A stretch of 64,000 bases of DNA from positions 1,376,001 to 1,440,000 of the forward strand of contig CAVSGI010000010.1 in NCBI GenBank assembly GCA_963727445.1, in the 5' to 3' direction. The stretch is from an uncultured delta proteobacterium. Its GTDB lineage: Bacteria > Myxococcota_A > Polyangia > Polyangiales > B10-G4. Made by a program: the position numbers and the translations under genes. Shown here piece by piece: positions 861-15,020 of the stretch. Position 1 is the stretch's first letter. Every line of letters begins with the position of its first letter. The notes below the pieces were generated by a model, which saw nothing but the letters and a program-made list of their open reading frames with translations, was not told the DNA's origin and did not search any database.

Positions 861-2795
861 ATGGAAACGCTACGGTTAGTCCCCTTGGTCCTCCCTAAGA
901 ACGAGAGCGCGAAGTCCGGCGAGGTCACGCGGGTCGGACGCTACCAGCTCGCCTTCGAGCTCGCTTCCGGCGGCATGGCGACCGTCTACCTCGCCCGGAC
1001 GGAAGGCCCCGCCGGCTTCGACAAGGTCGTCGCGCTCAAGCGCATCCATCCCCACCTGGCCAAGGAGAAGGCCTTCATCGACATGTTCCTCGACGAAGCG
1101 CGAATCGCGTCGAGGATCAGCCACCCCAACGTTTGTAGCGTCTTCGATTTCGGTGAGGCCGACGGCTCGTTCTTCATCGCGATGGAATACGTGATGGGCG
1201 AGACGGTCTCACGGCTGATCCGTCGCCTGCGCACGGAGAAGGAGCACTACAAGGACCCCCGGCTCCCCGGCCTCGCCGCCAAGATCATCGCGAGCGCCTG
1301 CGACGGGCTCCACGCGGCGCACGAGCTGAAGGGGGACTCCGGCGAGCTCCTGCAAGTGGTCCACCGCGACGTCTCGCCCCAGAACCTCTTCCTCGCGTAC
1401 GACGGCACGGTCCGCGTGGTGGATTTCGGCATCGCCCGCGCCGCCGGCCGCCTCCACGAGACGCGCACCGGCACGGTCAAAGGCAAGCTGGCCTACATGC
1501 CGCCCGAGCAGGCGCGCAAGCTCGCGGTCGATCGCCGGGCCGACGTCTGGGCCCTGGGTGTGGTCCTGTGGGAGATCCTCTGCGCCAAGCGACTGTTCAA
1601 GCGCGCGAACGACGTCGAGACGATCCTGGCGGTCATCAACGACCCGATCCCGGCGCCGTCGGAGGTCCGCAAGACCGTCCCCGAGGAGCTCGACCGGATC
1701 GTGATGAAGGCGCTCGCCCGAGACCGCGACGACCGCTACGCCACGGCACGGGAGATGGGCCGGGAGCTCCACCGCTTCCTCGGCACCCTCGACGAGCCCG
1801 TCACCAACGGCGACCTCGCCGACTGGATGGACGAGCTCTTCCCGGTGGAGAAGAAGCAGCGACTGGAGCTCATCGCCGAGGCACGTCGGACGCGGTCTGG
1901 GGCTGTGCCGCAGCTCGTCGATATCGCCGAGGAGCGCTCCGAGTCCGAGGTTCGGCCGATCATCAGCGACACCGACGTGAAGAGCGACGTCGTGACCGAC
2001 GGGAAGACGAGCCGCATCGTGGATACGCCGTCCGTCGCATTCGACGATGGGCTGGCGACGGACGAGGTCCCGAACGCCGACGAGCCGTCTACGGTCGACG
2101 AAGACGCCCCTCCCCCGATCGCTCAGCCGGCGGCGGCGGTCCCCGAACCCATCGACGCAGCGCTCATCGCCCCCGGCCCCAACAAGAAGCTGATCGCCCT
2201 CGGGCTCGGCGTGGCCGCGCTCCTGCTGATCGGCATCGTCGCGCTCTCCTGGGGCGGTGAGGAGCCGGAGGTGGCGGACGCCGAGAGCACCGACGTGGCG
2301 GAGAGCGAAGCGGAGCGCCTGGCTGCCGAAGACGAGGGCGCCAGCGCAACCGAATCCGAGCAGGAGACCGGATCCGTCTTCGACCCCGAGCCCGAAGATG
2401 AATCGGGGACCGAGGCGGAGACGGAGGCGGAGTCAGAGGCGTCCGAGGACGACGATCCCGTGTTCGGACAGGCCGCGGAGACCGAGACCGAAGCGGAGAC
2501 GGACACACCCGAGCCGGATCCACGACCGACCCACCGCCCCTCGATGCGTTGGCAGAGACCGTCGTCGCAGATGAGCAATTCGCACGCGGTGGGCGACGTG
2601 AACATCAGCACCCCGGGCGGATGGGCCGACGTCTATCTCGACGGTCACAAGCTCGGCCGCGCACCGGGTCGCCTGACGGTCCCCGCCGGCCGGACGGTAC
2701 TGATTTTGCGCCCCTTCGGTGGCTCCGAGTCGCGACGCGTCTCGGTCAACGTGCCCGAAGGGGCCACGCGCCGGGTCATCGTCGACCTGAATTGA
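861..2795 (+). CDS. membrane Ser/Thr protein kinase with acidic linker and C-terminal PEGA-like domain
   Basis: ELASGGMATV, VALK, HRDVSPQN, DFG, YMPPEQ, DVWALG; TM helix LIALGLGVAALLLIGIVALSW; C-terminal TPGGWADVYLDG..GRAP. Confidence 0.95.
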   Translation: METLRLVPLVLPKNESAKSGEVTRVGRYQLAFELASGGMATVYLARTEGPAGFDKVVALKRIHPHLAKEKAFIDMFLDEARIASRISHPNVCSVFDFGEADGSFFIAMEYVMGETVSRLIRRLRTEKEHYKDPRLPGLAAKIIASACDGLHAAHELKGDSGELLQVVHRDVSPQNLFLAYDGTVRVVDFGIARAAGRLHETRTGTVKGKLAYMPPEQARKLAVDRRADVWALGVVLWEILCAKRLFKRANDVETILAVINDPIPAPSEVRKTVPEELDRIVMKALARDRDDRYATAREMGRELHRFLGTLDEPVTNGDLADWMDELFPVEKKQRLELIAEARRTRSGAVPQLVDIAEERSESEVRPIISDTDVKSDVVTDGKTSRIVDTPSVAFDDGLATDEVPNADEPSTVDEDAPPPIAQPAAAVPEPIDAALIAPGPNKKLIALGLGVAALLLIGIVALSWGGEEPEVADAESTDVAESEAERLAAEDEGASATESEQETGSVFDPEPEDESGTEAETEAESEASEDDDPVFGQAAETETEAETDTPEPDPRPTHRPSMRWQRPSSQMSNSHAVGDVNISTPGGWADVYLDGHKLGRAPGRLTVPAGRTVLILRPFGGSESRRVSVNVPEGATRRVIVDLN

Positions 2796-2835: not shown

Positions 2836-3633
2836 ATGCACTTTCTTCGAGTGGCCATTCCCTGCGCCCTCGTGCTCCTCTGGACGTCATCCGTCGCTGC
2901 GCAAGGGGGCATCGCCGAGGGCGTTCAGCTCCTCGAGCGGGCGGAATTCGAGAGCGCCGTGGCGGCTTTCGACCGCGCCGAGGCCGCGACCGAGGGGCTC
3001 AGCCGCGCCAATCTCATCGCGCTCTACGTGAACCGCGCCGCGGCGCAGCTCGCCCTCCAACAGGGAGGCCGGATGCGGGAGGATCTCCGCCGCCTGGCCA
3101 CCCTCAATCCCGACCACCACTTCGACGCCGCGACGCGGCCCGAGATCGTGGAGGCCTTCCAGGGGCTCCGCGGCCGCGAGGTCGTCGGCCTTCGCGCGGA
3201 GGTGAGCGAAGATCCAGGCGGAGCCCGTGTGTCTGGCGAGGTCACGAACGACGTCGAGGAGCTCGCGCGCTCGGTCCGCGTCCGCGCGCGGATCGGCGAT
3301 GGTGATTGGCAAGAGGGCGACGGCTCGCTGGTGCTCCCCGCAGCGGTGGGAGGAACCGTCGAGTACGTGGTGGAGGTGATCGGCCCCGGCGGCGCGGTCC
3401 TCGCCAACGAGGGTACGGAGTCGGCACCCGCGACTCATGCGCTGGGCGGCGCGACCGCCGGCGCGCCGCAGCCCGATGATCCGCTGGCCGACGACGACGA
3501 CGACGGCAACATCGGGCTGATCGTCGGGATCGTCGCCGGCGTGGCCGCCATCGCTCTGGTGGTCGCCATCATCGCGGTCGCCGCGACCAGCGGCAACGAC
3601 CAGACCGCGCCCGACGCGCCGATGATCTTCTGA
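2836..3633 (+). CDS. exported TPR-like protein with C-terminal membrane anchor
   Basis: Signal peptide (..SVAAQ), helical TPR-like N-terminus, beta-rich middle, C-terminal TM helix; follows the kinase. Confidence 0.75.
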   Translation: MHFLRVAIPCALVLLWTSSVAAQGGIAEGVQLLERAEFESAVAAFDRAEAATEGLSRANLIALYVNRAAAQLALQQGGRMREDLRRLATLNPDHHFDAATRPEIVEAFQGLRGREVVGLRAEVSEDPGGARVSGEVTNDVEELARSVRVRARIGDGDWQEGDGSLVLPAAVGGTVEYVVEVIGPGGAVLANEGTESAPATHALGGATAGAPQPDDPLADDDDDGNIGLIVGIVAGVAAIALVVAIIAVAATSGNDQTAPDAPMIF

Positions 3634-3646
3634 TCGGCTCTCCGGC

Positions 3647-5338
3647 TCAGAAGAGCGAAGGCCGCCACACCACGCCCGCGAGGACGAGGAGCGCGTCGAT
3701 GTCCCGACTGGTGAGCCCGTCGACGTCGACGGTGACGTCGAGCTCCGGCAGCGGCGTGAGCAGGATGCCGCCGCCGACCATGTGCTCGAAGTAGCGGTCG
3801 ACGTCGGCGCGGTAGCGCGTCAGCGCCGGACGGTAGTGAATGGAGAGGTCGAAGACGCCGGGGATGATCTCGGCGCCGACGCCCGCGCGGATCGCGTAGG
3901 TCTCGATGAGCTCGCCGGTGGTCACCATCACGGTCAGATCGGCGCGCGCCACGTCGAAGAGACGAACGGCTCGTGCGTTGACCCACCCCGCGAGCTGGTC
4001 GAGGCGGTCCTTCTGGCCGACCTGGATCACCGTGCCCCCCGCCGTCACCGCCACCTTTTCGAGCTCGACCCCCACGTCGGCCGCACCGACCATGCGCGGC
4101 TCGAACTGCCCGGTGCAGGTCTCGTTCTCTGTCGGCGTGGCGGGCGCCCCCGGCACACGCACACAGAGCCAGCTCGGCGGCAGGTAGGACGCGAGCCAGC
4201 GCGAGCGCTCCGGCCGGCGCATGTCGAAGCGCGCGCCCGCACGGAAGACGCCGAGGCGAAGCGTCCCGTCGACGCCGGCCGCGGTGAGCTCGACCTGATC
4301 GGCGCCCCAGGGGTTGTCCGCGTCGAAGAGGTTGATCTCCGCGTGCGCACCGACGCGGGACTCGCCGGGAAACATGTCCACAGTGGCCGTGAGGCGGCGC
4401 TCGTCGATGGCGCCGTTGTAGAGCGACCCGTGGCCGACCAGCGCCACCACCGGACGGAGCGGATGCTCGGGCATTCGGAAGATCGCCTCGAGCCCGAAGC
4501 GGCTGGTGTCGAAGTTGGGGGCGCCGTCGATGGGGTTGGGCACGAAGCCGCCGAAGCCGGCGACGGTGATGCCCGAGAAGTTCGGGGACTGAATGCGCAG
4601 GCCATCCAGCTGTCCGATGGTGCTCGCTGCGTAGCGCATGCGACCGAGCGCAGCGTAGAAGTCCGCCGTCTGGCCGTAGGCGATCTGGAGCTCTCGCACC
4701 CTGAGATACGGCTGCGACGGACGCCCGGCGCGCGTGTCGAGGTTCGGCGCCATCCAGGCCTGGAACGCCGCGTCCGCGTCGATGGAGAGCGGCGTCCCCT
4801 GAATGGGCTCGGCGTGGACCTGCGCGCGAACCGCCACGCGACCGATCCCCGTGCCCTGGCCGCCCAGGGGGAGCATGGCCGCGCCTCCGACACCGAGGGC
4901 CAGGTTCAGGCGATGCTCGGCGGTGGTGACGCCCAGAGGCACGTAGTCCGGTTGCTGCTCCGATGCCGGCAGGGTGGCGTCGGGCCACTGACCGCGGAAC
5001 GCGGCGAGCGGCCGCACCGGCGGCAGCGCCACTTCCTCTTCCGTCCCGGCGTCACGCCGCGTGATCGCGACCCCTCGCGCCCCCAGCTCCACTCCCGACG
5101 GCGGGATCTCGATCGTCGCGTAGGAGGAGGTGACGCCGATGACCTCGTAGCGATGGCGCTGGATCAGCACCCGATCGCCGCGCGAGATCCCCTCGTTGGC
5201 GCCGGGCTCGACGTAGGCACGATCGCCGCTCACGTCCACGACCTGCACCCGGACGCGACGACGCTCCTGAGCCTCGGCTTCCGCCGCGGACAACAGGCCC
5301 AGCAGCCAGAGCGCCATCATCGGAAGCAGCCGCGTCAT
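3647..5338 (-). CDS. putative outer-membrane beta-barrel protein associated with multiheme cytochromes
   Basis: Signal peptide (..AEAEAQ), alternating amphipathic strands in the C-terminal two thirds, terminal Phe (GVVWRPSLF); 4-nt overlap with the upstream cytochrome gene. Confidence 0.7.
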   Translation of the reverse strand: MTRLLPMMALWLLGLLSAAEAEAQERRRVRVQVVDVSGDRAYVEPGANEGISRGDRVLIQRHRYEVIGVTSSYATIEIPPSGVELGARGVAITRRDAGTEEEVALPPVRPLAAFRGQWPDATLPASEQQPDYVPLGVTTAEHRLNLALGVGGAAMLPLGGQGTGIGRVAVRAQVHAEPIQGTPLSIDADAAFQAWMAPNLDTRAGRPSQPYLRVRELQIAYGQTADFYAALGRMRYAASTIGQLDGLRIQSPNFSGITVAGFGGFVPNPIDGAPNFDTSRFGLEAIFRMPEHPLRPVVALVGHGSLYNGAIDERRLTATVDMFPGESRVGAHAEINLFDADNPWGADQVELTAAGVDGTLRLGVFRAGARFDMRRPERSRWLASYLPPSWLCVRVPGAPATPTENETCTGQFEPRMVGAADVGVELEKVAVTAGGTVIQVGQKDRLDQLAGWVNARAVRLFDVARADLTVMVTTGELIETYAIRAGVGAEIIPGVFDLSIHYRPALTRYRADVDRYFEHMVGGGILLTPLPELDVTVDVDGLTSRDIDALLVLAGVVWRPSLF

Positions 5339-6222
5339 CGTCCGCGTCCTCCCGGATGGCAGGAGAGACAGGCGGCGCCGCTGGTCGCGACCGCGCCACC
5401 CCGGTGCTGCTGGCGGATCATGAGGGGCGAGTGCGCGTGGCAGCCGGTGCAGGACACGGCGTTGGTCGCCGGCTCGGAGAGGTGGCAGCTACGGCAAGGC
5501 GCTCCACGGTGCGAGCCGAAGCTGATCGCGAAGCGGATGTCGTGGGTCCGGGGCGCCGTGCTCGTGAGCGGGCTGGTGCGCGGCAGCGCGGTGGGATCGA
5601 CGAACGCCGGCGTCCAGCCGTCCGCGCGGTGACACGCCCCGCAGTCGCGAGGGAAGGGAGGGTTGCCGGCCGTGCCGTCGTGGTTGGGATGGACGCTGCT
5701 GTCGCGGTACTCGCTCTCGTGGCAGGCGTAGCACTCGGCCGGTGTCGCGCTGTACCAGCGCTCGCCGGTTCGCCGGTGGCAATCGGTGCAGGCCGCGAGG
5801 ACGTGCATGCCCGTGAGCGGCAGGCGCGTCTGCCGGTGGATGGTGATGGCGCTCGTCCGGTACCAACCCTGCGCGTTGTGGCAGCGGTCGCAGCTCTGTC
5901 CGAGGCGCCGCTGGTGCGGGTCCTGGTGGCAGCTGTTGCAGTCGCGGCGTACGCGCTGCTCGGGCTGGTGGCAGTTGGTGCAGGCCACCGCGCGGTGGCG
6001 GCCCGAGAGGGGGAAGCCGGTGCGGGAGTGGTCGAAGCCCGATTCGCCGCGCACCGTCCCGGTCACGCCCCACCCCTCGGGGGTGTGGCATGCGCTGCAC
6101 TGGATCCCCTGGGTGATCGACGCGTCGTGTCCCCGGCGTTGCGCCCCAGCGTTCGATCCCAGCACAGCCGCGCCGGCCAGACTGGCGACTGCCGCGAGAG
6201 CGAAGAGTACGCGTCCCCTCAT
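5335..6222 (-). CDS. decaheme cytochrome c (10 CxxCH), exported
   Basis: ATG 6222 overlaps the upstream stop; signal peptide MRGRVLFALAAVASLAGAAVLG; CSACH, CTNCH, CNSCH, CDRCH, CTDCH, CYACH, CGACH, CRSCH, CTGCH, CLSCH. Confidence 0.92.
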   Translation of the reverse strand: MRGRVLFALAAVASLAGAAVLGSNAGAQRRGHDASITQGIQCSACHTPEGWGVTGTVRGESGFDHSRTGFPLSGRHRAVACTNCHQPEQRVRRDCNSCHQDPHQRRLGQSCDRCHNAQGWYRTSAITIHRQTRLPLTGMHVLAACTDCHRRTGERWYSATPAECYACHESEYRDSSVHPNHDGTAGNPPFPRDCGACHRADGWTPAFVDPTALPRTSPLTSTAPRTHDIRFAISFGSHRGAPCRSCHLSEPATNAVSCTGCHAHSPLMIRQQHRGGAVATSGAACLSCHPGGRGR

Positions 6223-8057
6223 CGCTCCGGCTCCTCGTGCGGTGAGGCGTGACAATCGTTGCACTCGTTGTAGCCCAGACGATAACGCACGACCTCGGTG
6301 TCGTTGCGGAGATTGACGGTGGGGTGGCAGCTCGCGCACTCCGCCTGCGCGTGGCGGCCCTCGAGCGCCCAACCCGCCTTGGCCACGTGGTCGAAGCGGC
6401 GGATCTGGAAGATGGTCGTCGTGTGGCAGCTCTCACACGCCTTCTGCGGATCCGTGAGTCGGAACTGACCGGCGTGAACGTCTGCGTGACACCCCTGGCA
6501 CTCCCGCGGCGCGCCGCGGTAGCTCGCGCCGCGCCCCGAACGCCGGTCTTCCTCCGACGGAGAGTGACACGCGTCACAGGTGGTCAGCTCGTGAGCGCCC
6601 GTGAGCGGCCAGGTCGAGTGATCGATGTTCGGGCGATCCCACCCCGCCGCGCTGTGGCAGCTCGCGCATCCCCCCGCTGCCATCTCCCGCGCGAACTGAT
6701 CGCCGTGTGGGTTTTCGTGGCACGTCGCGCATGCCTCCTGGGCGCCGCTCCAAGAGAGGCGCGGGCGATTGTCGTGATGATGGCAGCCGCTGCACGGCAC
6801 GGCCGTGTGACGCCCCTCGAGCGCGAAGCCCGTGGAGGCGTGCATGGTCACGCCGAAGAGGCTGGGCGAGAAGCCTCGCACGGTGTGGCAGCCGCCGCAC
6901 TCGCCGCCCTCGCGGGACGCGAACTCGCCAGAATGCCGATCCTGATGGCACGAGTCGCAGCGGTCGAAGGTCAGCTCGCGATACCGCTCCTGAGGCGGCA
7001 GCCGGCGCTGGTGACATCGGTCGCAATCGACGCTCTCGTGGCGGCCTTCGAGGGGGTAGGCGGTGCGCGCGTGCGCCGCGCGACCGATCCGCTCGGGCAG
7101 CCCCGTCCACTTGATCGACCGGTGGCAGCGCGCGCAGTTGCGGCCGAACTCCGCTTCGTGCACCGGCCGGTGACAGCCGACGCAAGCGCGGCCTGCGCGC
7201 GGTGCGCGGTCGACGCCGGCGTCGTGACATCGTCCGCAGGCGACGCGCGCGTGACCGTTGCGCAAGGAGAGCCCCGGATGGTTGCTGCGCACCGCGCCGA
7301 GGTCGTCCCACCCGCTCTCGTTGTGGCACTGGGCGCAGCGCGGCCCGTACCGGCCGCGGTGAGGATCGGAGTGGCAGCTCGCGCAGGTGCTGAACTCGAT
7401 GCCGCGGTATCGGGGCGGCTCGCCGTGACACTCGCGGCAGGCGACGCTCCTGTGCTCTCCGCGCAGGGCGAAGCGCGAGAGCGAATGATCGAACTCGCTC
7501 ATGCGAACCGTCCGCCAGTTCTGCTCGTTGTGGCAGGTGTTGCATCGATCCCCGAAGCGGCCGCTGTGCGGGTCGTCGTCGGAATGGCAGGAGTTGCAGT
7601 TGGTCCTGAGCCCGAGATAGGTCCGGTTGCCGCGACGGTTGCGGCTATCGTGGCAGCGGCGGCACTGGATCTGGAGGTGACCGCCGCGGAGCGGCCAACC
7701 GGTGTCGTCGTGATTGAGTCGTTCCGGCGATCCGCCGGGCCAGCGCACCAGCGACGTACCGCGCCCGAGGTGCTCAACGTGACAGCTGACACAATCGCGC
7801 CCGCGATATTCGCGCCCGTGAAGCCCGCGATGCGCGCGGATCTGCGCCCCGAGGTCGTTGTGGCAGCGCAGGCAAGCGCTCTCCTCGACCCGCCGGCCGG
7901 AAGCGTGACATCGGTTGCAGTTGTCGTCGCCTTCGAGCTCGCTGTGCGCGCGGCTGAGCGGACCCGGCGAAAGGAGCTGAGCGCGCGCGACGGATGGAGG
8001 TCCCGCCACGACCATGGCGCTGCTGACCAGGAGGAGCGCTATCGTCTGTGGTCTCAC
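6219..8057 (-). CDS. 23-heme cytochrome c built from c7-like triheme repeats, exported
   Basis: GTG 8057 overlaps the upstream TGA; signal peptide ending ARA-Q; 23 CxxCH counted; repeated H..(W/F/Y)(P/A)LxGxH..CxxCH..CxxCHxDxHxG..CxxCH module. Confidence 0.93.
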   Translation of the reverse strand: MRPQTIALLLVSSAMVVAGPPSVARAQLLSPGPLSRAHSELEGDDNCNRCHASGRRVEESACLRCHNDLGAQIRAHRGLHGREYRGRDCVSCHVEHLGRGTSLVRWPGGSPERLNHDDTGWPLRGGHLQIQCRRCHDSRNRRGNRTYLGLRTNCNSCHSDDDPHSGRFGDRCNTCHNEQNWRTVRMSEFDHSLSRFALRGEHRSVACRECHGEPPRYRGIEFSTCASCHSDPHRGRYGPRCAQCHNESGWDDLGAVRSNHPGLSLRNGHARVACGRCHDAGVDRAPRAGRACVGCHRPVHEAEFGRNCARCHRSIKWTGLPERIGRAAHARTAYPLEGRHESVDCDRCHQRRLPPQERYRELTFDRCDSCHQDRHSGEFASREGGECGGCHTVRGFSPSLFGVTMHASTGFALEGRHTAVPCSGCHHHDNRPRLSWSGAQEACATCHENPHGDQFAREMAAGGCASCHSAAGWDRPNIDHSTWPLTGAHELTTCDACHSPSEEDRRSGRGASYRGAPRECQGCHADVHAGQFRLTDPQKACESCHTTTIFQIRRFDHVAKAGWALEGRHAQAECASCHPTVNLRNDTEVVRYRLGYNECNDCHASPHEEPER

Positions 8058-8923
8058 TCGGACCAGATCCAACGATAGCCGTAGAACCAGGCGACTCCGA
8101 TGTGCACCGAAACTGAGAGGATCATCAAGATCGCGAGAAAGCGATGGAGCCCGCGCCAGCTGCGTAGGAGCGCGGTGCCGGCTGCGGTGCCCGCCTCGGC
8201 GCCGGCGAGCTTCGCGGTCTCCTTCGTGATGCGCTTGGCTTCCTCGAGCTCCTCCGGGAGCATCGTCTTCGGGCGCGTGAGCTCGTGAAACGCATCGCGC
8301 ACCACCCTGCGACGCGCGCGCTGCTCCTTCATCCATCGCGGGATGGTCGCGATGGCGCGCATGAGCGAGACGTTGGCCGCCAGGTAGGTGACCTTCTTCG
8401 CGCTCAGCTCTTTTCGGATCATGGCGCCGAGCCCCGGCAACAGCTCGTCCAAGGCCATCAGGTTGTCCGCGATCTGTTGGCTGTCCGGCTTGGGTGCGAT
8501 GGCGTAGAAGTACCGACCGATCACGCCCGTGAGCACCACCATCGAGAGGCTGGCAGATGTGACAGTTGCGATCGGTGTACGCAGTTGGAACGCCGAGTGG
8601 AACAGGATCAGCAGCGAGCCCACGAGCCCCGTCACTACGTGCATGTTCAGCCAGGCTTCCATCGAGCCCAGGAGACGGAGGCGGGCGACGCGCCGGCGAA
8701 CCAGATAGAGCAGATTCGTGAGAATCAAAAAGGTTCCGACGATTCCGTAGCCATGTCCGACGATGCTGCCAGGGCTCAGCACGCGGTAGTCGTCGTGCAT
8801 CACGCGGTCCTGGAGATCCATCGTGTAGAAGTCCCAGCCACGAGCCAGGAGCACCGCCGTCGTCCCCACGAGTATCAACAGGAGCAAGAAGCGGGCCCGC
8901 TTGGGCCGCATCTGTTGCTCCAT
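8054..8923 (-). CDS. inner-membrane protein, cytochrome b / ferric-reductase-like with four His
   Basis: About five TM helices with His pairs WLNMH..ILFH and WRGLH..VSVH; GGGAG RBS before ATG 8923 (the ORF-track start at 9376 overlaps the divergent gene). Confidence 0.75.
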   Translation of the reverse strand: MEQQMRPKRARFLLLLILVGTTAVLLARGWDFYTMDLQDRVMHDDYRVLSPGSIVGHGYGIVGTFLILTNLLYLVRRRVARLRLLGSMEAWLNMHVVTGLVGSLLILFHSAFQLRTPIATVTSASLSMVVLTGVIGRYFYAIAPKPDSQQIADNLMALDELLPGLGAMIRKELSAKKVTYLAANVSLMRAIATIPRWMKEQRARRRVVRDAFHELTRPKTMLPEELEEAKRITKETAKLAGAEAGTAAGTALLRSWRGLHRFLAILMILSVSVHIGVAWFYGYRWIWSE

Positions 8924-9034
8924 CCGCGTGAGACTCCCCGTGTGGCGCATGAGCGGCCCCATGCTGCCGACCGCGCCGCTGGTGTCAACGTGAAAAGTAC
9001 GCTCGCGGCCATTGATTGGCGATAGTTTACGAGC

Positions 9035-10348
9035 GTGACGACCGCGATCATCCTCGCCGCCCTGGTCGGTCTCGCGCTGCTCCTGTCCTTCGCCTGGAAG
9101 AGCTTGGAAGGGGCGCGGGAGCAGAAGTCGGCGGACTTGCTCGCCGACATGGCGTCGATGGGTGATGTCGCCCCGCCAAGCCTCCACCCGTACATCGATC
9201 CTTCGAAGTGCGTCGGCTCGGGCGCCTGCGTTCGCGCCTGTCCCGAGCACGACGTCATCGCCCTCGTCGGCGGTCAGGCCCAGCTGATCAACCCCCTCGG
9301 CTGCGTCGGCCACGGGGCCTGCGCCGCGGCCTGCAGCTTCGATGCGATCAAGCTCGTCTTCGGAACCGAGACGCACGGCGTCGAGCTGCCCAAGACGGAC
9401 AGGAACTTTCAGACGAATCAGCCCGGCGTCTACATCGTCGGAGAGCTCGGCGGCATGGGGCTCATCCGCAACGCCGTGTCACAGGGCTCGCAAGCGGTGG
9501 CGCACATCGCCTCGGGCGGTCGGCGCGGCGGCGGGGATGTCTTCGACGTGATCGTGGTCGGCGCAGGCCCCGGCGGGATCGCCGCCACCCTCGCTGCGAT
9601 GGAGGCAGGCTTGAACGTCGTGTGCGTCGAGCGGGAGGAGCTCGGCGGAACCATCCTCCACTACCCGCGCGCGAAGGTCGTGATGACGGGCACCCTCGAG
9701 CTCCCGCTCTACGGCAAGGTCCGCAAGCGCACCATGAGCAAAGAGAAGCTCGTCGAGCTCTGGGACGACATCCGCGACAAGACGCAGCTGCCAGTGGCGA
9801 CAGGTGAGCTCGTCGAAGCGCTCGTGCAGAACGCGGACGGCACCTGGACCGTTCGCTCGACGACGGGGGATCGCCGTGGCGCCAACGTGGTGCTCGCCCT
9901 CGGGCGGCGCGGCTCACCCCGCAAGCTGGGTGTACCCGGCGAGGATCACGCCAAGGTCGCCTATCGGCTCCTCGAGCCGGAGGTCTTCGAAGGACAGCAC
10001 GTGCTGGTCGTGGGCGGAGGCAACAGCGCCGTGGAGAGCGCGATCGCCCTGGCCGATTACGGCGGCTGCGCCTCGGTGGGGATCAGCTACAGACGCACCG
10101 AGTTCGCGCGCTGTCGCGGCGAGAACAAGGCGCGCATCGCGGAGCTCCTATCGACGGGAAAGGTGCGGGGCTTCTTGCCGAGCAACGTCGCGCGCGTCGA
10201 AGATCGAACGGTGACTCTGCGCTCCGACGATGGACGCGAGGCGCCGCTCCAAAACGACGCGATCATCGTCCAGATCGGCGGCACCAGCCCGGCGAAGCTC
10301 CTCCAGAGCTTCGGGATCCAGATGGTGACGAAGTACGGCGAGCGTTGA
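9035..10348 (+). CDS. membrane-anchored ferredoxin-domain NAD(P)/FAD oxidoreductase (TrxR/YpdA-like)
   Basis: N-terminal TM helix; CVGSGACVRACP and CVGHGACAAACS; TNQPGVYIVGE; VIVVGAGPGG (FAD); VLVVGGGNSA..SYRR (NADPH-type). Confidence 0.9.
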   Translation: MTTAIILAALVGLALLLSFAWKSLEGAREQKSADLLADMASMGDVAPPSLHPYIDPSKCVGSGACVRACPEHDVIALVGGQAQLINPLGCVGHGACAAACSFDAIKLVFGTETHGVELPKTDRNFQTNQPGVYIVGELGGMGLIRNAVSQGSQAVAHIASGGRRGGGDVFDVIVVGAGPGGIAATLAAMEAGLNVVCVEREELGGTILHYPRAKVVMTGTLELPLYGKVRKRTMSKEKLVELWDDIRDKTQLPVATGELVEALVQNADGTWTVRSTTGDRRGANVVLALGRRGSPRKLGVPGEDHAKVAYRLLEPEVFEGQHVLVVGGGNSAVESAIALADYGGCASVGISYRRTEFARCRGENKARIAELLSTGKVRGFLPSNVARVEDRTVTLRSDDGREAPLQNDAIIVQIGGTSPAKLLQSFGIQMVTKYGER

Positions 10349-10354
10349 AGAACC

Positions 10355-11395
10355 TCACGGGCACGCGCTGGCACCGCCGCCCACGCAGATCGTCAGAGAA
10401 CCGTAGTCGCAACACTGCCCCGAACAGCCACCGCAGGGACAGGCGCTGCACCCGAGCGTCGTGAAGGTCCGGCAGCTCCCGCCGACGCAAACGGCGTTCG
10501 GGGCGCACGGCATGTCACACCCACCGCAGTGTCGGGGATCGGTCGTGATGTCGACGCAGTGATTGGAGCAGTTCGTCATCGTGGTCGTGCAGCGGTCCTC
10601 GCAGGTTCCGCTGCGACACGTGACCTCGCTCCCCGTGTCGCAGGCCCTACCCTCCGAGCCGCAGTTGTTCGGGTCGGTTCGCAGGATGGTGCAGCTCCCG
10701 TCGGAGAGCATGTCGAGCTCCGGGCGACACTCGCAGCTCCCGCCGGTGCAGTACTGCTCGCCGACGGCGCAGGACGAGCCGCAGCCCGGCACGCTGGTGT
10801 CCTCCGTGCTCGTATCCCACGACCCCGTGTCCCAACCCGAGTCGACGCGGGAATCACGTCCGCTGTCCCTGACGTTCGTGTCGGGTCGCGCGTCCATCGC
10901 GGTGTCCGGGGGCGCGTCGGGGAGCGCGTCCATCGCTCCGTCGGGCGCCGTCGCGTCGGGCATACCCGCGTCGTCGGACGTACAGCGCCCCTCTGTGCAC
11001 TCCATCGACGTGCAGGCCGCCTCGCCCGGACCCGGGTCGAGCGTCACGACGAAGGGGTCCACCTCGGTCGGCAGCGTGAGCTCGCGACACCCTTCGACGT
11101 ACCAGTGGCAGCTCTCGTTGCGCGCCCTTCCGCGTACGGCGTAGCTCCCCGCAGGCAGCGCCATCGGCCGCATGGTGCCCGACCCCGAAAGCGGAACCTC
11201 GGCGCTGAAGAGCACGCGCCCGTCGCAGCTCCCCTCGAGGATCGACGCCTCGACGTAGCGCGCCTGCGCCCGCTCGGCCTCGGTTCGAAAGTGAACGCCC
11301 CAATGGAGCGGGTGCGCATCGGCCCGGCACGCCGTGAGCAGGGTCAGCAGGACCCAAGCAGCGCGAATCGTCAGTTGCGACCGTTCGGATGACAT
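10355..11395 (-). CDS. Cys-rich lipoprotein (myxobacterial DPxNCGxCG-type repeats)
   Basis: Lipobox LLTAC; D/A/T-rich linker; TDPNNCG and TDPRHCGGC repeats; paralog of 16441..17634. Confidence 0.8.
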   Translation of the reverse strand: MSSERSQLTIRAAWVLLTLLTACRADAHPLHWGVHFRTEAERAQARYVEASILEGSCDGRVLFSAEVPLSGSGTMRPMALPAGSYAVRGRARNESCHWYVEGCRELTLPTEVDPFVVTLDPGPGEAACTSMECTEGRCTSDDAGMPDATAPDGAMDALPDAPPDTAMDARPDTNVRDSGRDSRVDSGWDTGSWDTSTEDTSVPGCGSSCAVGEQYCTGGSCECRPELDMLSDGSCTILRTDPNNCGSEGRACDTGSEVTCRSGTCEDRCTTTMTNCSNHCVDITTDPRHCGGCDMPCAPNAVCVGGSCRTFTTLGCSACPCGGCSGQCCDYGSLTICVGGGASACP

Positions 11396-12276
11396 TCGAG
11401 GCAGAAGTTCACGGAGGAGGTGCCGGTTGGATAATCCCGAACCTCACGGTGCTTGCTGTCCATGCGGGAGCGCGAGTGTTCTCCGGTGTGACAGCCGATG
11501 CAGTCGGTGTTCATCCCGCCCGTGCTCGGCCCGAGATCCGGGTTGTGGCAATCGAGGCAGGCGTAGTCGTGAGGCTCCCGCTGGATCGGGAAGCGCGACT
11601 CCGGGTGCGCGGCCTCGAGCGCCGGCGTCCACGCGGTCGTCGTGTGGCACGTGTCGCAGGTCGTCGGGAAGGAGCCGTGCCCCGGATAGGGGCTCGAGTC
11701 GTAGTCTGCGCGGTGACAGCCCACGCAATCGCGCGGCGTGCCCGCGTAAACCGGCGGGCTGCCCACGTGACAGCTCGAGCACGCCGTCGCCGCGTGGGCG
11801 CCGTCGAGGGGCCAGGAGTGATCGAAGGTCGAGGGCCGCCAGGCCGCGTCGTCGTGACACTGGGCGCAGTCCGTGGGGTAGCCGTCGTGCGGCGGCATGG
11901 TGGCGTTGTCGTAGTCGCTCTGATGACAACCGACGCAGGTGTTCGGCGTGTCGCCGGGACGGTAGCCGACCGTATGACACCGGTTGCAGTCGAGCTCCGC
12001 ATGCGCGTTCTGGAGCACGAACCACTCGTGGTTGATCGCCACCGCCGGAACCCACGCGTCCTCGGTGTGGCAGTCGGCGCACTTGGTGTCGAAGAGATCC
12101 TGGTGCACCGGATTGTCAGTCGCCTGGTACTCGGGGAGGTGGCAGAGGACGCAGTCCTCCTCCATCACCGGCACCGCCTCGTGCCGGGGGTCCTGACAGG
12201 CCCCGAGGGCCGCCGCGGCCACGAAAACCAGCCCCAGGACCACACTCCATCCCCGGCGAGACATGACCATACGCAT
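11371..12276 (-). CDS. 11-heme cytochrome c lipoprotein
   Basis: Lipobox ALGAC; 11 CxxCH (CVLCH, CADCH, CNRCH, CVGCH, CAQCH, CSSCH, CVGCH, CDTCH, CLDCH, CIGCH, CLECH). Confidence 0.92.
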   Translation of the reverse strand: MRMVMSRRGWSVVLGLVFVAAAALGACQDPRHEAVPVMEEDCVLCHLPEYQATDNPVHQDLFDTKCADCHTEDAWVPAVAINHEWFVLQNAHAELDCNRCHTVGYRPGDTPNTCVGCHQSDYDNATMPPHDGYPTDCAQCHDDAAWRPSTFDHSWPLDGAHAATACSSCHVGSPPVYAGTPRDCVGCHRADYDSSPYPGHGSFPTTCDTCHTTTAWTPALEAAHPESRFPIQREPHDYACLDCHNPDLGPSTGGMNTDCIGCHTGEHSRSRMDSKHREVRDYPTGTSSVNFCLECHPNGRN

Positions 12277-12320: not shown

Positions 12321-15020
12321 TCACCGATCGAGGGGGACGATGACCCGGGTCCGCTGCCCTGCCCTCACCCGGATCGTCGCGGCTTTTTCGGGGCTTCGGC
12401 CGAAAGGCAGGAGCCGCAAGCGGTAGCTTCCTGGCCTCAGGCGCAAGGTCCCTGGGGATCGCCCGACGCGTTGATCCCCGATATACACGTCCGCCCACCC
12501 ACCGGGCGTCGCGATGTTCACGCGACCGCGCCTCGGCTGACGGGTTGTCGTCGGGGCTCGTGCCCCCCCAGGGTCCGGCGCCTCCTCGACGCTGGGGTCG
12601 GACGCCTCCTCGAGAGTGGGATCCGGCTGCGGATCGGGATCGCCGGGACCCAGGAGCTCGAGGCCGTCCTCGTCGCCTGCCTCCACCGCGACAGCCTCGG
12701 GCGCTTCGGGCTCGCCAACGGATGGGGTCACCTCTTCTTCGGTCGTCTCCGTCTCGCCTTGCTCTCGGGTGTCTCGGGTTCCGCGCTCGGGGGTGAAGAC
12801 GTGGGTGCCTGCCCACACGCCGATCACCGCCACCGCGATCACCGCTCCGATCCAGCCGATCGCCCGCAGGGGCGAGTGCGACTCCTCCGAGGGGTAGTGG
12901 CTGATGCGCTGCTCGGGTGGCGGCACCTCGATCAATTCCGAGTCACCGAGATTCTGCGTGTGGTGGGCGTCGTGCTTCTGGGGACCGCGCACGTGCGCAA
13001 TCAGGTCCTCGAGGTGCTTTCGTTCCCGGCCGAAGACCCGCTCCATCCACTCGGCGAGGTCCGCTCGAGAGACGGGCTCGGCCTCCGCCGCCATCACGCG
13101 CGCCAGATCGCGCCCGAGATCGCGCGCCGTCGGGTAGCGCTGGTCGGGGTCTCGGCTGAGCGCTTTGAGGGTGACCCGGTCGAGCTCCGCGGAGACCCGC
13201 GGGTTGAGCTCGGAGGGCGGCGGGATGGGAGCGTCGAGCACCGCCATCAGGGTGTCGGGATCATTGTCGCGCCGGAAGAGCCGCCGCCCTGTGAGCAGCT
13301 CCCAGAGCACGATCCCCATCGCCCAGACGTCGACGCGACGGTCGAGCTTCTTTCGCCGGCACTGCTCCGGCGAGACGTAGCCCAGCTTGCCCTTCATGGC
13401 GCCGGTCTTGGTCTTGTGGAGCCGGCCCGCCGCCCGCGCGATGCCGAAGTCGACGACGGTGACATGGCCCCCGAAGCCGAGGAAGAGGTTCTGCGGTGAG
13501 ACGTCGCGGTGGATCACGTCGAGGGGCTTGCCGAAGTCGTCCTTCGTCTCGTGGGCGGCGTGAAGCCCTTCGCACGCGTCCGCGATGATGTAGGCGGCGA
13601 GGGCGGGCCATGTCGGCGCCTCTCGGTCCTCCTTGCTCTCCGCGATCTTCTTGAACACCGCCCCCAGGGTCTCGCCCTGGATGAACTCCATCGCGATGTA
13701 GTAGCCGCCGTCGACCCGTCCGAAATCGAAGACGCTGCACACGTTCGGGTGGTCGATGCGCGAGGCGATGCGCGCCTCGTCCAGGAACATCTCGATGAAG
13801 GACGCTTCCCTGGCGAGGTGGGGATGGATGCGCTTGAGGGCGACGAGCTTCTCGAAGCCGCCCGGCCCTTCGGCGCGCGCCAAGAAGACGGTCGCCATCC
13901 CGCCCGAGGCCAGCTCCGCGCTCAAGGTGTAACGGCCGAATTTCTGGCCCGGCTGGGCATCGGAAAAGGACGCGCCCGGCGGGCGAATGGGCGTGAGGGC
14001 CTGCCCGTCGGCGCTCGTCACGGCGGTCACGAAGGAGTCGGCATCGCCGAAGTCCTTCAGGCTCAGCTCCGGCCTGATCTCGCCGGTCGGCTCGGCGACG
14101 AAAGAGCTCGGGCCGGGCTTGGGGTGAGGCCGGGTGGTCGCCATGTCGGTCGCGCGCCCGGCGAGCACGTCCCGGGCTGCACGCCCGCCCGCCGCACGTG
14201 CGCGTGCCACGAAGCCCTCGAGCACGTCCGCCACGTCGCGCGCCCGCTCCGGCCGCTCCTTCGGCTCGACCGCCAACATCGAGCGCAACAGTGGTCTCAA
14301 CTCCTCGGGAACCCCATCCCAGGCAACCACCTCCAGATCGGCCTCGGCCGGCAAGGCCCCGGTGAAGGCGCGCACGAGGATGCGACCGAGGGAGTAGAGG
14401 TCCGCTCTCGCGTCCACCGCCCCACGCCGCCACTGCTCTGGCGCCATGTACTCCGGGGTTCCACCGACGAGCGCCTCCTCGTCATCGACGGCGATGGCGA
14501 CGCCGAAATCCGTCAGGCGAACGTCGCCCGCGCGCGAGATGAGGATGTTCCCCGGCTTGACGTCGCGATGGATGATCGGCTGATGCTCGTTGTGGTGTGC
14601 ATAGTCGAGAGCCCGCGCCACCTCCGCCACGACGTGCGCGACCACATCGGGCGCGAGCTGCATCCCGGACTCCTGCGCCTCGTCGAGGATCTGGCCGAGA
14701 TCCGTCCCGTCCACCCACTCCATGGCGAGGAAGTACTCGTCGCCGGCCCGTCCGAAATCGAACACGGGAACGATGTTGGCGTGGGCCAGCCGCATGGAGA
14801 GGCGCGCCTCGCTGACGAAACGGTCGAGCGTCCCCGGTCGCGACAGCCGCTCGGCCTGGATGCGCTTGATGCACAGGTCCTTCACCACCCCGCCGGGCCC
14901 GAACGCCCGGGCGCGATGGACTTCGCCCATGCTCCCGCGACCGAGCGACTCGAAGAGAATGTACTTCCCGACGCGCTCAGGGCCTCTTGCAGGGCTCGCC
15001 TCCGACACGGCGAGGATCAT
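12321..15020 (-). CDS. Ser/Thr kinase with two tandem kinase domains, TM helix and PEGA-like domain
   Basis: Domain 1: LGRGSMG, HRDVKPGN, DFG, YMAPEQ. Domain 2: LASGGMA, HRDVSPQN, DFG, YVSPEQ. Then TM helix and TPGGWADVYIG. Confidence 0.93.
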   Translation of the reverse strand: MILAVSEASPARGPERVGKYILFESLGRGSMGEVHRARAFGPGGVVKDLCIKRIQAERLSRPGTLDRFVSEARLSMRLAHANIVPVFDFGRAGDEYFLAMEWVDGTDLGQILDEAQESGMQLAPDVVAHVVAEVARALDYAHHNEHQPIIHRDVKPGNILISRAGDVRLTDFGVAIAVDDEEALVGGTPEYMAPEQWRRGAVDARADLYSLGRILVRAFTGALPAEADLEVVAWDGVPEELRPLLRSMLAVEPKERPERARDVADVLEGFVARARAAGGRAARDVLAGRATDMATTRPHPKPGPSSFVAEPTGEIRPELSLKDFGDADSFVTAVTSADGQALTPIRPPGASFSDAQPGQKFGRYTLSAELASGGMATVFLARAEGPGGFEKLVALKRIHPHLAREASFIEMFLDEARIASRIDHPNVCSVFDFGRVDGGYYIAMEFIQGETLGAVFKKIAESKEDREAPTWPALAAYIIADACEGLHAAHETKDDFGKPLDVIHRDVSPQNLFLGFGGHVTVVDFGIARAAGRLHKTKTGAMKGKLGYVSPEQCRRKKLDRRVDVWAMGIVLWELLTGRRLFRRDNDPDTLMAVLDAPIPPPSELNPRVSAELDRVTLKALSRDPDQRYPTARDLGRDLARVMAAEAEPVSRADLAEWMERVFGRERKHLEDLIAHVRGPQKHDAHHTQNLGDSELIEVPPPEQRISHYPSEESHSPLRAIGWIGAVIAVAVIGVWAGTHVFTPERGTRDTREQGETETTEEEVTPSVGEPEAPEAVAVEAGDEDGLELLGPGDPDPQPDPTLEEASDPSVEEAPDPGGARAPTTTRQPRRGRVNIATPGGWADVYIGDQRVGRSPGTLRLRPGSYRLRLLPFGRSPEKAATIRVRAGQRTRVIVPLDR

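Follow-up and report, generated by a model that had tools for sequence, protein, structure and literature searches.

A predicted PCC3-type porin-cytochrome gene set in Myxococcota and its conserved NAD(P)H-type Fe-S flavoprotein partner

Where do electrons enter a multiheme cytochrome conduit that spans the bacterial envelope, and could the entry point be cytoplasmic NAD(P)H? This question is raised by a locus in a 64,000 bp stretch of contig CAVSGI010000010.1 (G000:C10:1376001-1440000, G+C content ∼70%), termed here the window; positions given below are window positions unless another contig is named. Between 3647 and 12276 are found four overlapping minus-strand genes that encode an inner-membrane protein (IMP), multiheme cytochromes of 23 and 10 hemes, and a putative outer-membrane barrel. 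A gene for an Fe-S flavoprotein is divergent from these, and a gene for an 11-heme cytochrome lipoprotein is located further on. The original prediction took the locus for a candidate trans-envelope conduit that could link NAD(P)H to the cell surface by means of components unlike MtrA/MtrB. The interpretation favoured here, with its chances judged to be about even, is that a gene set of the published PCC3 type, together with the Fe-S flavoprotein, forms an envelope-spanning conduit by which electrons would pass from NAD(P)H in the cytoplasm to the surface without a quinone step. The PCC3-type core is known, as a prediction; what appears to go beyond the PCC3 texts is the conserved NAD(P)H-type Fe-S flavoprotein input. 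The evidence lies in gene content and sequence motifs, in predicted folds, and in the synteny, the phyletic co-occurrence and the natural fusions of the genes.

The minus-strand operon runs from the IMP gene (8054 to ∼8953) through the genes for the 23-heme cytochrome (6219–8057, 612 amino acids (aa), GTG start, 23 CxxCH motifs) and the 10-heme cytochrome (5335–6222, 295 aa, 10 CxxCH) to the barrel gene (3647–5338, 563 aa, no Cys-heme motif, C-terminal Phe). Successive genes overlap by 4 nt, at 8054–8057 (GTGA), 6219–6222 (ATGA) and 5335–5338 (ATGA). The flavoprotein gene is on the plus strand (9035–10348, 437 aa, Fe-S and FAD/NAD(P) domains), and the 11-heme lipoprotein gene is on the minus strand (11371–12276, 301 aa, 11 CxxCH, lipobox LGAC). 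This arrangement, with a sum of 44 CxxCH motifs (10 + 23 + 11), is as originally predicted. The variant motifs CxxxCH, CxxxxCH and CxxCK are absent. The start of the IMP is uncertain, with candidate ATG codons at 8902, 8914, 8941 and 8953, and relatives point to the upstream ones; the protein is thus 282–299 aa long. For the same reason the divergent intergenic region, originally put at about 110 bp, is 81–132 bp in length (IMP start at 8953 and 8902, respectively), and it occupies 8954–9034 (81 bp) if the start is at 8953. The barrel, IMP and flavoprotein genes are single-copy in their own genome.

The recurrence of the gene set in related loci is more than chance. Eight loci were fetched from other genomes; the IMP, 23-heme, 10-heme and barrel genes occur together in all eight, and the flavoprotein gene is adjacent in seven. 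The barrel is found in 9 of 41 related genomes, and a barrel profile has matches in 42 of 401 Myxococcota genomes, about 14 of which are strong and full-length and the others weaker. Five of the weak-match loci were re-fetched, and all five display the flavoprotein, the IMP, and 23-heme-type and 10/13-heme-type cytochromes in a different gene order; four of them have a third cytochrome as well. A scan with the IMP alignment, using one genome per species, yields 80 loci. Sixty are from Myxococcota-type metagenome-assembled genomes (MAGs), and the other IMP loci are from Bacteroidota, Gemmatimonadota, Ignavibacteriae, one Nitrospira MAG and one unclassified bacterium.

Cultured carriers include Prolixibacter denitrificans DSM 27267 and Emticicia oligotrophica DSM 17448, and the hypothesis is therefore directly testable. 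The P. denitrificans genes form one co-directional operon in the order ResB/CcsA-like gene, IMP, flavoprotein, cytochromes of 20 and then 16 hemes, and a secreted protein of 534 aa; the flavoprotein gene overlaps the IMP gene. The 534-aa protein aligns with the barrel profile over 477 columns (hhalign probability 91%, E = 9e-7). Plasmid pEMTOL02 of E. oligotrophica has the same annotated order: ccsA, a hypothetical protein, an NAD(P)-binding protein, two 'cytochrome c3 family' proteins and a hypothetical protein.

The flavoprotein follows the IMP closely. Where each side of the IMP gene is covered by 7 kb or more (40 loci), a flavoprotein orthologue is present in 39, at a median distance of 214 bp (Myxococcota 30/31, Bacteroidota 6/6, Gemmatimonadota 2/2, Ignavibacteriae 1/1); the genome of the single exception carries the orthologue elsewhere (E = 2.6e-156). 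Flavoprotein and IMP are thus neighbours across four phyla; a survey of the synteny of this pair across phyla had been suggested with the original prediction. At the level of whole genomes, a strong flavoprotein orthologue is present in 11 of the 41 related genomes, and the IMP is present in 11/11 of these (cut by a contig end in one); a strong flavoprotein orthologue is present in none of the 30 IMP-less genomes, two of which have weaker paralogues. The co-carriers span nine different families, and the counts take in kin, non-independent genomes and overstate the number of independent events.

Flavoprotein and IMP are also found fused. A profile search with the IMP in 1.84 billion cluster representatives detects 3026 relatives at E ≤ 0.001, and the membrane module is therefore common in nature. 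Among the 150 best representatives, 21 are single chains with both flavoprotein and IMP. A Pfam scan of all 29 chains of at least 420 aa in this group reveals 14 full-length proteins with the flavoprotein (ferredoxin and Pyr_redox domains) followed by the IMP, one with the reverse order, six shorter forms with both, one fusion of the IMP to multiheme domains, and seven whose additional portion is without Pfam domains. Eighteen members make up one fusion cluster, and the named ones are from Archangium, Myxococcaceae and Archangiaceae MAGs. The 750-aa fusion form is found on many separate contigs and is therefore no accident of assembly. Both orders of fusion agree with the predicted topology, in which the IMP has its N-terminus inside and its C-terminus outside, and the flavoprotein the opposite. 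The originally proposed link of an NAD(P)H-type flavoprotein to the set thus has the support of adjacency, joint presence and absence, and natural fusions; on this sequence evidence the flavoprotein belongs to the conduit system, and its association with the IMP is too close for a bystander. Another kind of fusion is displayed by P0284 (867 aa), in which an IMP domain (residues 49–278) is joined to multiheme cytochrome domains.

The flavoprotein has Pfam matches to Pyr_redox_3 (2.4e-36) and to Fer4 families, and an N-terminal membrane helix is present in all 38 orthologues of the flavoprotein alignment (A3). Two ferredoxin-type motifs, C59xxSxxC65xxxC69P and C90xxH93xxC96xxxC100P, lie in residues 59–101 (window 9209–9337). 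The second Cys of each is replaced, by Ser or Thr in the first motif and by the invariant His93 in the second. The 38 orthologues come from several phyla, and three of them retain Cys in the first motif. This pattern suggests [3Fe-4S] clusters or Ser/His-ligated [4Fe-4S] clusters. The FAD/NAD(P)H domain (residues 170–435) has the motifs GxGxxG (176–181), GGGNSAVE (327–334) and SYRR (351–354). The SYRR...R sequence that follows the second Rossmann motif is similar to the NADPH-binding HRR motif of thioredoxin reductases. The nearest solved chains are those of thioredoxin reductase (TrxR), YpdA/Bdr and TrxR-type ferredoxin-NADP+ reductases (7a76, 7a7b, 3ab1, 3lzw). The protein scores below the equivalog cut-offs for YpdA (137 versus 339.9 bits) and TrxR (67.8 versus 343 bits), and the 38 orthologues have no conserved redox-active CxxC outside the ferredoxin domain.

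Several flavoprotein genes in other genomes are unusual. The gene at G038:C1:2670124-2671104 (locus L011) is possibly damaged, as it has an internal TGA and is matched by tblastn in two pieces, and the flavoprotein at L071:8599-9918 has lost the ferredoxin motifs over ∼60 residues in a manner that resembles a frameshift. Both anomalies may represent gene damage, and sequencing errors in the MAGs are an equally possible cause. Weaker paralogues (E values 1e-61 to 1e-95) are found within frames of 730–830 aa at G033:C3:101817-103040, G032:C34:31618-32643, G031:C15:34262-35197 and G003:C714:63600-64574. Genomes G032 and G033 have no IMP, and G003 and G031 have the full set. These paralogues perhaps represent a kindred flavoprotein to which a different domain is fused.

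The IMP sequence suggests how electrons might cross the inner membrane. In an alignment of 23 relatives (A2), H36, H88, H102, H253 and H267 are invariant and H50 is nearly so; the original description of a four-His membrane protein thus holds for the four His of the HX13H pairs but not for the number of conserved His residues. The pairs are part of two motifs, W84x3H88x13H102 on helix 3 and W249x3H253x13H267 on helix 5, in which the Trp and His residues are invariant. Helix 4 has the motif TG126xxG129, with both Gly residues invariant and with T125 represented by Ser in some relatives. Five long helices make up the AlphaFold2 model (pLDDT 84.4), and a further helical segment of ∼100 aa is inserted between the fourth and the fifth. 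Lys and Arg are abundant in this insert, at the N-terminus and in the loop that joins helices 2 and 3; by the positive-inside pattern, all three should be cytoplasmic. H88 and H253 would then be on the cytoplasmic side and H102 and H267 on the periplasmic side. Judged from these motifs, the four His of the HX13H pairs are likely heme ligands, and the IMP is likely a di-heme-b transmembrane electron carrier. Family searches give a weak Pfam match to DUF4405, with precomputed matches to PF14358 and PF01292 on relatives, and no match to Pfam Ferric_reduct. The nearest IMP clusters in the ESM Atlas are 'hypothetical proteins' of Acidobacteriota, Myxococcota and Gemmatimonadota and offer no clue to function.

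Much of this signature has been published. PCC3 was predicted as a set consisting of an IMP, a periplasmic cytochrome (median of 21 hemes), a cytochrome termed 'extracellular' and a porin, and the 'conserved inner membrane protein' of PCC3 and PCC4 is described as ∼300 aa in length, with five helices, SGXXG in helix 4 and WX3HX13H in helices 3 and 5 (He, Barco, Emerson and Roden, 2017; PMC5566968, available portions). The same portions liken this protein to a di-heme ferric-reductase domain. The locus in the window has an IMP with the signature, a cytochrome with at least 21 hemes, a second multiheme cytochrome and a porin-like protein. The core operon is thus likely of the PCC3 type, an assignment made by architecture and motifs and not by sequence homology with proteobacterial PCC3 proteins. 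The novelty implied for the core by the original prediction is lost, as the four-gene layout is that of PCC3 and the IMP bears the published motifs. The core does not coincide with an already characterised complex, because PCC3 has been described without biochemical characterisation.

From the same HX13H signature, He et al. (2017; PMC5566968, available portions) suggested a quinone-linked role for both PCC3 and PCC4. Applied to the present locus, this model would make the IMP a quinone-reactive cytochrome b, electrons would move inward from Fe(II), minerals or other donors to the quinone pool, and the flavoprotein would belong to a side branch or be a neighbour without a part in the conduit. 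Expression of PCC3 genes is known from the iron oxidiser Sideroxydans sp. CL21, where one IMP gene is up during iron oxidation (10.1101/2025.02.27.639646, available sections), and Mtr/Mto-type conduits are thought to be reversible (PMC10734462, available passages). Such a role for the flavoprotein is at odds with its adjacency to the IMP in 39 of 40 loci, with the joint presence and absence in 41 genomes and with the 21 fusions among 150 representatives, and Pfam and NCBIfam scans detect no quinone-binding family in the IMP. In addition, the named carriers are not known iron oxidisers. The quinone-linked model is considered unlikely for this locus, though it is the main rival of the favoured interpretation.

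The three cytochromes have His residues sufficient for bis-His ligation of every heme (50 His for 23 hemes, 22 for 10 and 23 for 11). The 23-heme protein has a signal peptide, ∼26 aa per heme and c7-like modules, with Cytochrome_C7 matches in six stretches. Orthologues are present in 8/8 related loci at 50–63% identity, and the modal heme counts of the type are 23 (34 loci) and 20 (25 loci; n = 76). It is likely a wire that spans the periplasm. The 10-heme protein displays a signal peptide of the signal peptidase I type, ∼30 aa per heme and Cytochrome_C7/c3 Pfam matches. Its gene is translationally coupled to the barrel gene, its orthologue adjoins the barrel in 8/8 related loci, and the modal heme count of the type is 10 (46 of 73 loci). 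An orthologue of the 11-heme lipoprotein (41–60% identity) is near the operon in 6/8 related loci, and genes of this type are also found in many loci of the IMP-alignment scan. The lipobox Cys is present in the orthologues with intact N-termini. This lipoprotein is a candidate for the far end of the wire, either on the outer surface or in association with the outer membrane.

Maturation of c-type cytochromes can be taken for granted, because the genome has three Cytochrom_C_asm genes, one of them within a 1103-aa frame; a check for maturation genes, proposed at the outset, is thereby answered. The ResB family has no match in the genome. Multiheme proteins are numerous, with 27 open frames that have at least four CxxCH motifs. 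A second large multiheme cluster is located at C2:64867-79759 (frames with 29, 6, 12, 10, 8 and 10 CxxCH), and a lone frame with 26 CxxCH is found at C10:601753-605373.

The 563-aa protein has no Pfam family match and no NCBIfam match at E ≤ 0.01. It has 116 homologue clusters; wherever a source supplies a name, it reads 'hypothetical' and belongs to a Myxococcota or 'Deltaproteobacteria' MAG. The AlphaFold2 model, based on 47 homologues (mean pLDDT 86.8, pTM 0.68), displays a signal-like helix, a small beta domain (residues 27–93), a low-confidence linker and ∼22 long strands (residues 144–558). C392 and C408 are invariant and are in a loop. The predicted features are the general ones of an outer-membrane barrel: a signal peptide, antiparallel strands closed into a barrel, and an aromatic residue at the C-terminus. 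Thus the protein is predicted with confidence to be an outer-membrane beta-barrel. The structural model suggested in the original prediction for 3647–5338 is accordingly that of a barrel, and, with genes that co-occur across genomes and phyla, the earlier proposal of a trans-envelope porin-multiheme conduit stands.

Barrel and cytochromes fall outside the MtrB, MtrA and MtrC families in family-model searches, which agrees with the original view of components unlike MtrA/MtrB. The 563-aa protein is unmatched by the MtrB/PioB model TIGR03509 (cut-off 240 bits), and that model has no match in the whole genome (85.6% complete), a weak blank, the named control genomes being unmatched too. With the DmsE/MtrA model TIGR03508 (cut-off 192 bits) the 10-heme protein is unmatched and the 11-heme protein scores 28.2 bits. 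With the OmcA/MtrC model TIGR03507 (cut-off 209 bits) the 23-heme protein scores 15.1 bits.

The barrel bears on a second alternative, in which the electrons would go no further than the periplasm. The flavoprotein and the IMP would reduce the cytochromes as an electron store or for a soluble substrate, and the barrel would be a plain porin. The nearest structural matches of the barrel model do include OccK/OprD substrate channels and TonB-dependent receptors. Moreover, porin-less clusters of cytochromes and HX13H membrane proteins, with an 'other redox protein' of 412–425 aa beside the latter, are listed for Dechloromonas, Gallionella ES-2 and Leptothrix (He et al., 2017, Supplementary Table 6; PMC5566968), and the inner module can therefore occur without a barrel. 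The 'other redox protein' may belong to the flavoprotein family and would then be a partial precedent for the association. Against a plain porin, there is an overlap of the barrel gene with the 10-heme gene, and the barrel stays with the cytochromes in 8/8 loci and, in a distantly homologous form, in Bacteroidota; a lipoprotein cytochrome, itself conserved, goes with the set; and the ∼22-strand barrel lacks a domain of plug size, the N-terminal beta domain being only ∼67 residues. A periplasmic end point seems rather improbable.

The favoured conduit from NAD(P)H to the surface can be pictured as follows. With its N-terminal helix as a tether, the flavoprotein would lie on the cytoplasmic side of the inner membrane, oxidise NAD(P)H at the FAD and pass single electrons through two unusual Fe-S clusters to the IMP. 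Two b hemes held between helices 3 and 5 of the IMP, analogous in role to those of ferric-reductase/NOX-type and b561-type proteins, would conduct the electrons through that membrane. From there the 23-heme cytochrome would lead across the periplasm, the 10-heme cytochrome would reside in or at the ∼22-strand barrel, and the 11-heme lipoprotein, as the outer end, would meet an acceptor, e.g. Fe(III)/Mn(IV) minerals, humics or O2.

Outward flow is preferred from established bioenergetics, because NAD(P)H is a low-potential donor and an inside-negative membrane potential favours the export of electrons. Such a path would run down proton-motive force and not build it, and therefore would suit redox balancing or reductive mobilisation of metals more than classical respiration. 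The opposite direction would require an outside donor of very low potential, such as a cathode, Fe(0) or reduced humics, which delivers electrons through the hemes and Fe-S clusters for reduction of NAD(P)+. TrxR-type ferredoxin-NADP reductases are reversible, and Prolixibacter denitrificans is described as iron-corroding. Inward electrons would move against the inside-negative potential and end at the NAD(P)+ couple, at -320 mV, and the set encodes no energy-coupling subunit. Reverse flow is considered very improbable.

Several points weigh against the proposed NAD(P)H-to-surface conduit, besides the non-independence of the genomes in the co-occurrence counts. Cofactor binding and protein contacts are deduced, and the b hemes, the type of Fe-S cluster and the preference for NADPH or NADH are read from motifs. 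Foldseek finds no significant solved relative of the IMP model (best E = 0.26), the structural match of this model to CybB (5oc0) is weak and within the range common for helical bundles, and a quinone site in the IMP is compatible with the data. The seating of a cytochrome in the barrel and the outward facing of the 11-heme lipoprotein are candidate placements, and a gene of the 11-heme type is not found within the fetched stretch in two of the eight related loci. Many carriers, judged by name, appear to be aerobic heterotrophs, and they fit poorly with classical anaerobic metal respiration. Finally, PCC3 itself is termed 'functionally unverified' (10.1101/2025.02.27.639646, available sections).

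What might such a system be for? Extracellular electron-transfer routes of the Mtr, Pcc and Mto kinds begin at the quinone pool. A conduit fed by an NAD(P)H flavoprotein, if real, would be a different wiring of metabolism to the outside, energy-dissipating and independent of the respiratory chain. Perhaps, and this is put forward tentatively, the system is an envelope-spanning bacterial counterpart of the eukaryotic NADPH oxidases and ferric reductases, which delivers NAD(P)H electrons to a porin-cytochrome wire, bypasses quinone and serves as a non-respiratory outlet in bacteria of four or more phyla, for the most part aerobes of soil and sediment. Its uses may then include dissolution of Fe(III)/Mn(IV) minerals for uptake, reduction of humics and formation of extracellular superoxide. 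The carriers belong to groups seldom counted as electroactive (Polyangia, Bacteroidota, Gemmatimonadota and Ignavibacteriae), and the flavoprotein-IMP module, split in the window, is fused in some Myxococcia. Were this so, the published picture of PCC3-type clusters as quinone-based and iron-oxidising would need revision.

Other genes are found within and around the locus. Between the flavoprotein and 11-heme genes, a minus-strand gene (10355–11395) encodes a MXAN_6577-like Cys-rich protein, which is secreted and has 33 Cys. It was rejected as a component of the set, as it has dozens of paralogues genome-wide and stands beside the set in only two further loci. These neighbours are in L010/L017 (one genome) and, as a 47-aa match, in L047. 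Paralogous stretches are detected by tblastn on at least 15 contigs of its own genome, partly in tandem arrays, e.g. C2:183.5-185.4 kb and C12:271.9-274.7 kb. Ser/Thr protein kinase genes flank the locus at 861–2795 (plus strand) and 12321–15020 (minus strand). The 644-aa kinase has a PEGA domain at its C-terminal end. The 899-aa kinase apparently has two kinase domains, and its residues 14–299 and 295–678 match separate stretches of the related locus L009, where kinase genes also adjoin the barrel gene. Immediately downstream of the barrel gene, on the opposite strand (2836–3633, plus), is a 265-aa frame with no Pfam or NCBIfam match. No RNA run is listed for the locus sequence, and two DNA metagenome runs share small fractions of it (0.11 and 0.06).

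Comparison with known systems begins with PCC3. The locus has the same four-gene set, with an IMP of ∼300 aa, a porin, and cytochromes of 23 and 10 hemes. Gallionellaceae PCC3 periplasmic cytochromes have 21, 24 or 27 hemes and the other cytochromes 10–35 (PMC10734462, available passages), and the two PCC3 sets of Sideroxydans sp. CL21 have 24 + 14 and 24 + 12 hemes (10.1101/2025.02.27.639646, available sections). The number of IMP helices, the twofold WX3HX13H, the [S/T]GxxG motif of helix 4 and a very low ratio of residues to hemes are also shared. The differences are Thr for Ser in the helix-4 motif, the flavoprotein and a third, lipoprotein cytochrome in the set, and the phylogenetic range. 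PCC3 has been described only in Alpha-, Beta- and Gammaproteobacteria, and homologues were found in Proteobacteria only (He et al., 2017; PMC5566968, available portions); the present locus is from Myxococcota and has relatives in Bacteroidota, Gemmatimonadota and Ignavibacteriae.

The flavoprotein partner is not mentioned in the main text of He et al. (2017), where FAD, ferredoxin and pyridine nucleotide have zero occurrences, or in its eight supplementary files (PMC5566968). Nor is it mentioned in the PCC3 passages of PMC10734462 and of the CL21 preprint (10.1101/2025.02.27.639646). Literature searches with exact words find no flavoprotein-fed conduit. The cassette is also not described in the available parts of a peat extracellular electron transfer preprint (section 9), an outer-membrane cytochrome survey, bioanode metagenome studies and a Methylobacter bioanode paper; the last, in its available part, has a Mto-type cluster.

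MtrCAB, MtoAB and PioAB resemble the locus in the pairing of a multiheme cytochrome with a barrel and in a lipoprotein cytochrome as a possible outer end. MtrA has ten hemes in ∼300 aa, like the barrel-coupled cytochrome here, and the MtrB barrel has 26 strands, compared with ∼22 in the present model. The differences are the lack of an MtrB/PioB match, cytochrome scores far below the DmsE/MtrA and OmcA/MtrC cut-offs, and an input by a di-heme-b protein and a flavoprotein in place of the quinol oxidase CymA. The Geobacter Pcc (OmaB-OmbB-OmcB) and Ext systems likewise have a barrel together with two kinds of cytochrome, one multiheme and periplasmic, the other a lipoprotein. The Desulfovibrio Tmc and Hmc complexes also connect the periplasm with the cytoplasm, by way of a multiheme cytochrome in the former, an Fe-S protein in the latter and a cytochrome b in the membrane; their Fe-S subunits are HdrD-like, with no flavin/NAD(P)H domain, and there is no barrel.

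The electron-entry side has its own parallels. The flavoprotein shares the fold family and the GxGxxG and GGGNSAVE motifs with TrxR-type ferredoxin-NADP+ reductases and YpdA/Bdr, but differs in that it has no redox CxxC and has a membrane anchor and a Ser/Thr- and His-substituted ferredoxin domain. Compared with the FRD/NOX/FRE proteins and the E. coli cytochrome b561 CybB, a superoxide oxidase, the flavoprotein-IMP pair differs in having a flavin module of TrxR fold with an Fe-S ferredoxin domain, and not an FNR-like one, in the IMP's lack of a Pfam Ferric_reduct match, and in its proposed acceptor, which would be a c-heme wire and not O2 or Fe(III) directly. It resembles them in the two HX13H pairs on two helices, which would hold two b hemes stacked across the membrane, and in a donor side of FAD and NAD(P)H. 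As in the FRD/NOX proteins, flavoprotein and heme domain are in one chain in some lineages, and they are encoded by two genes in the window.

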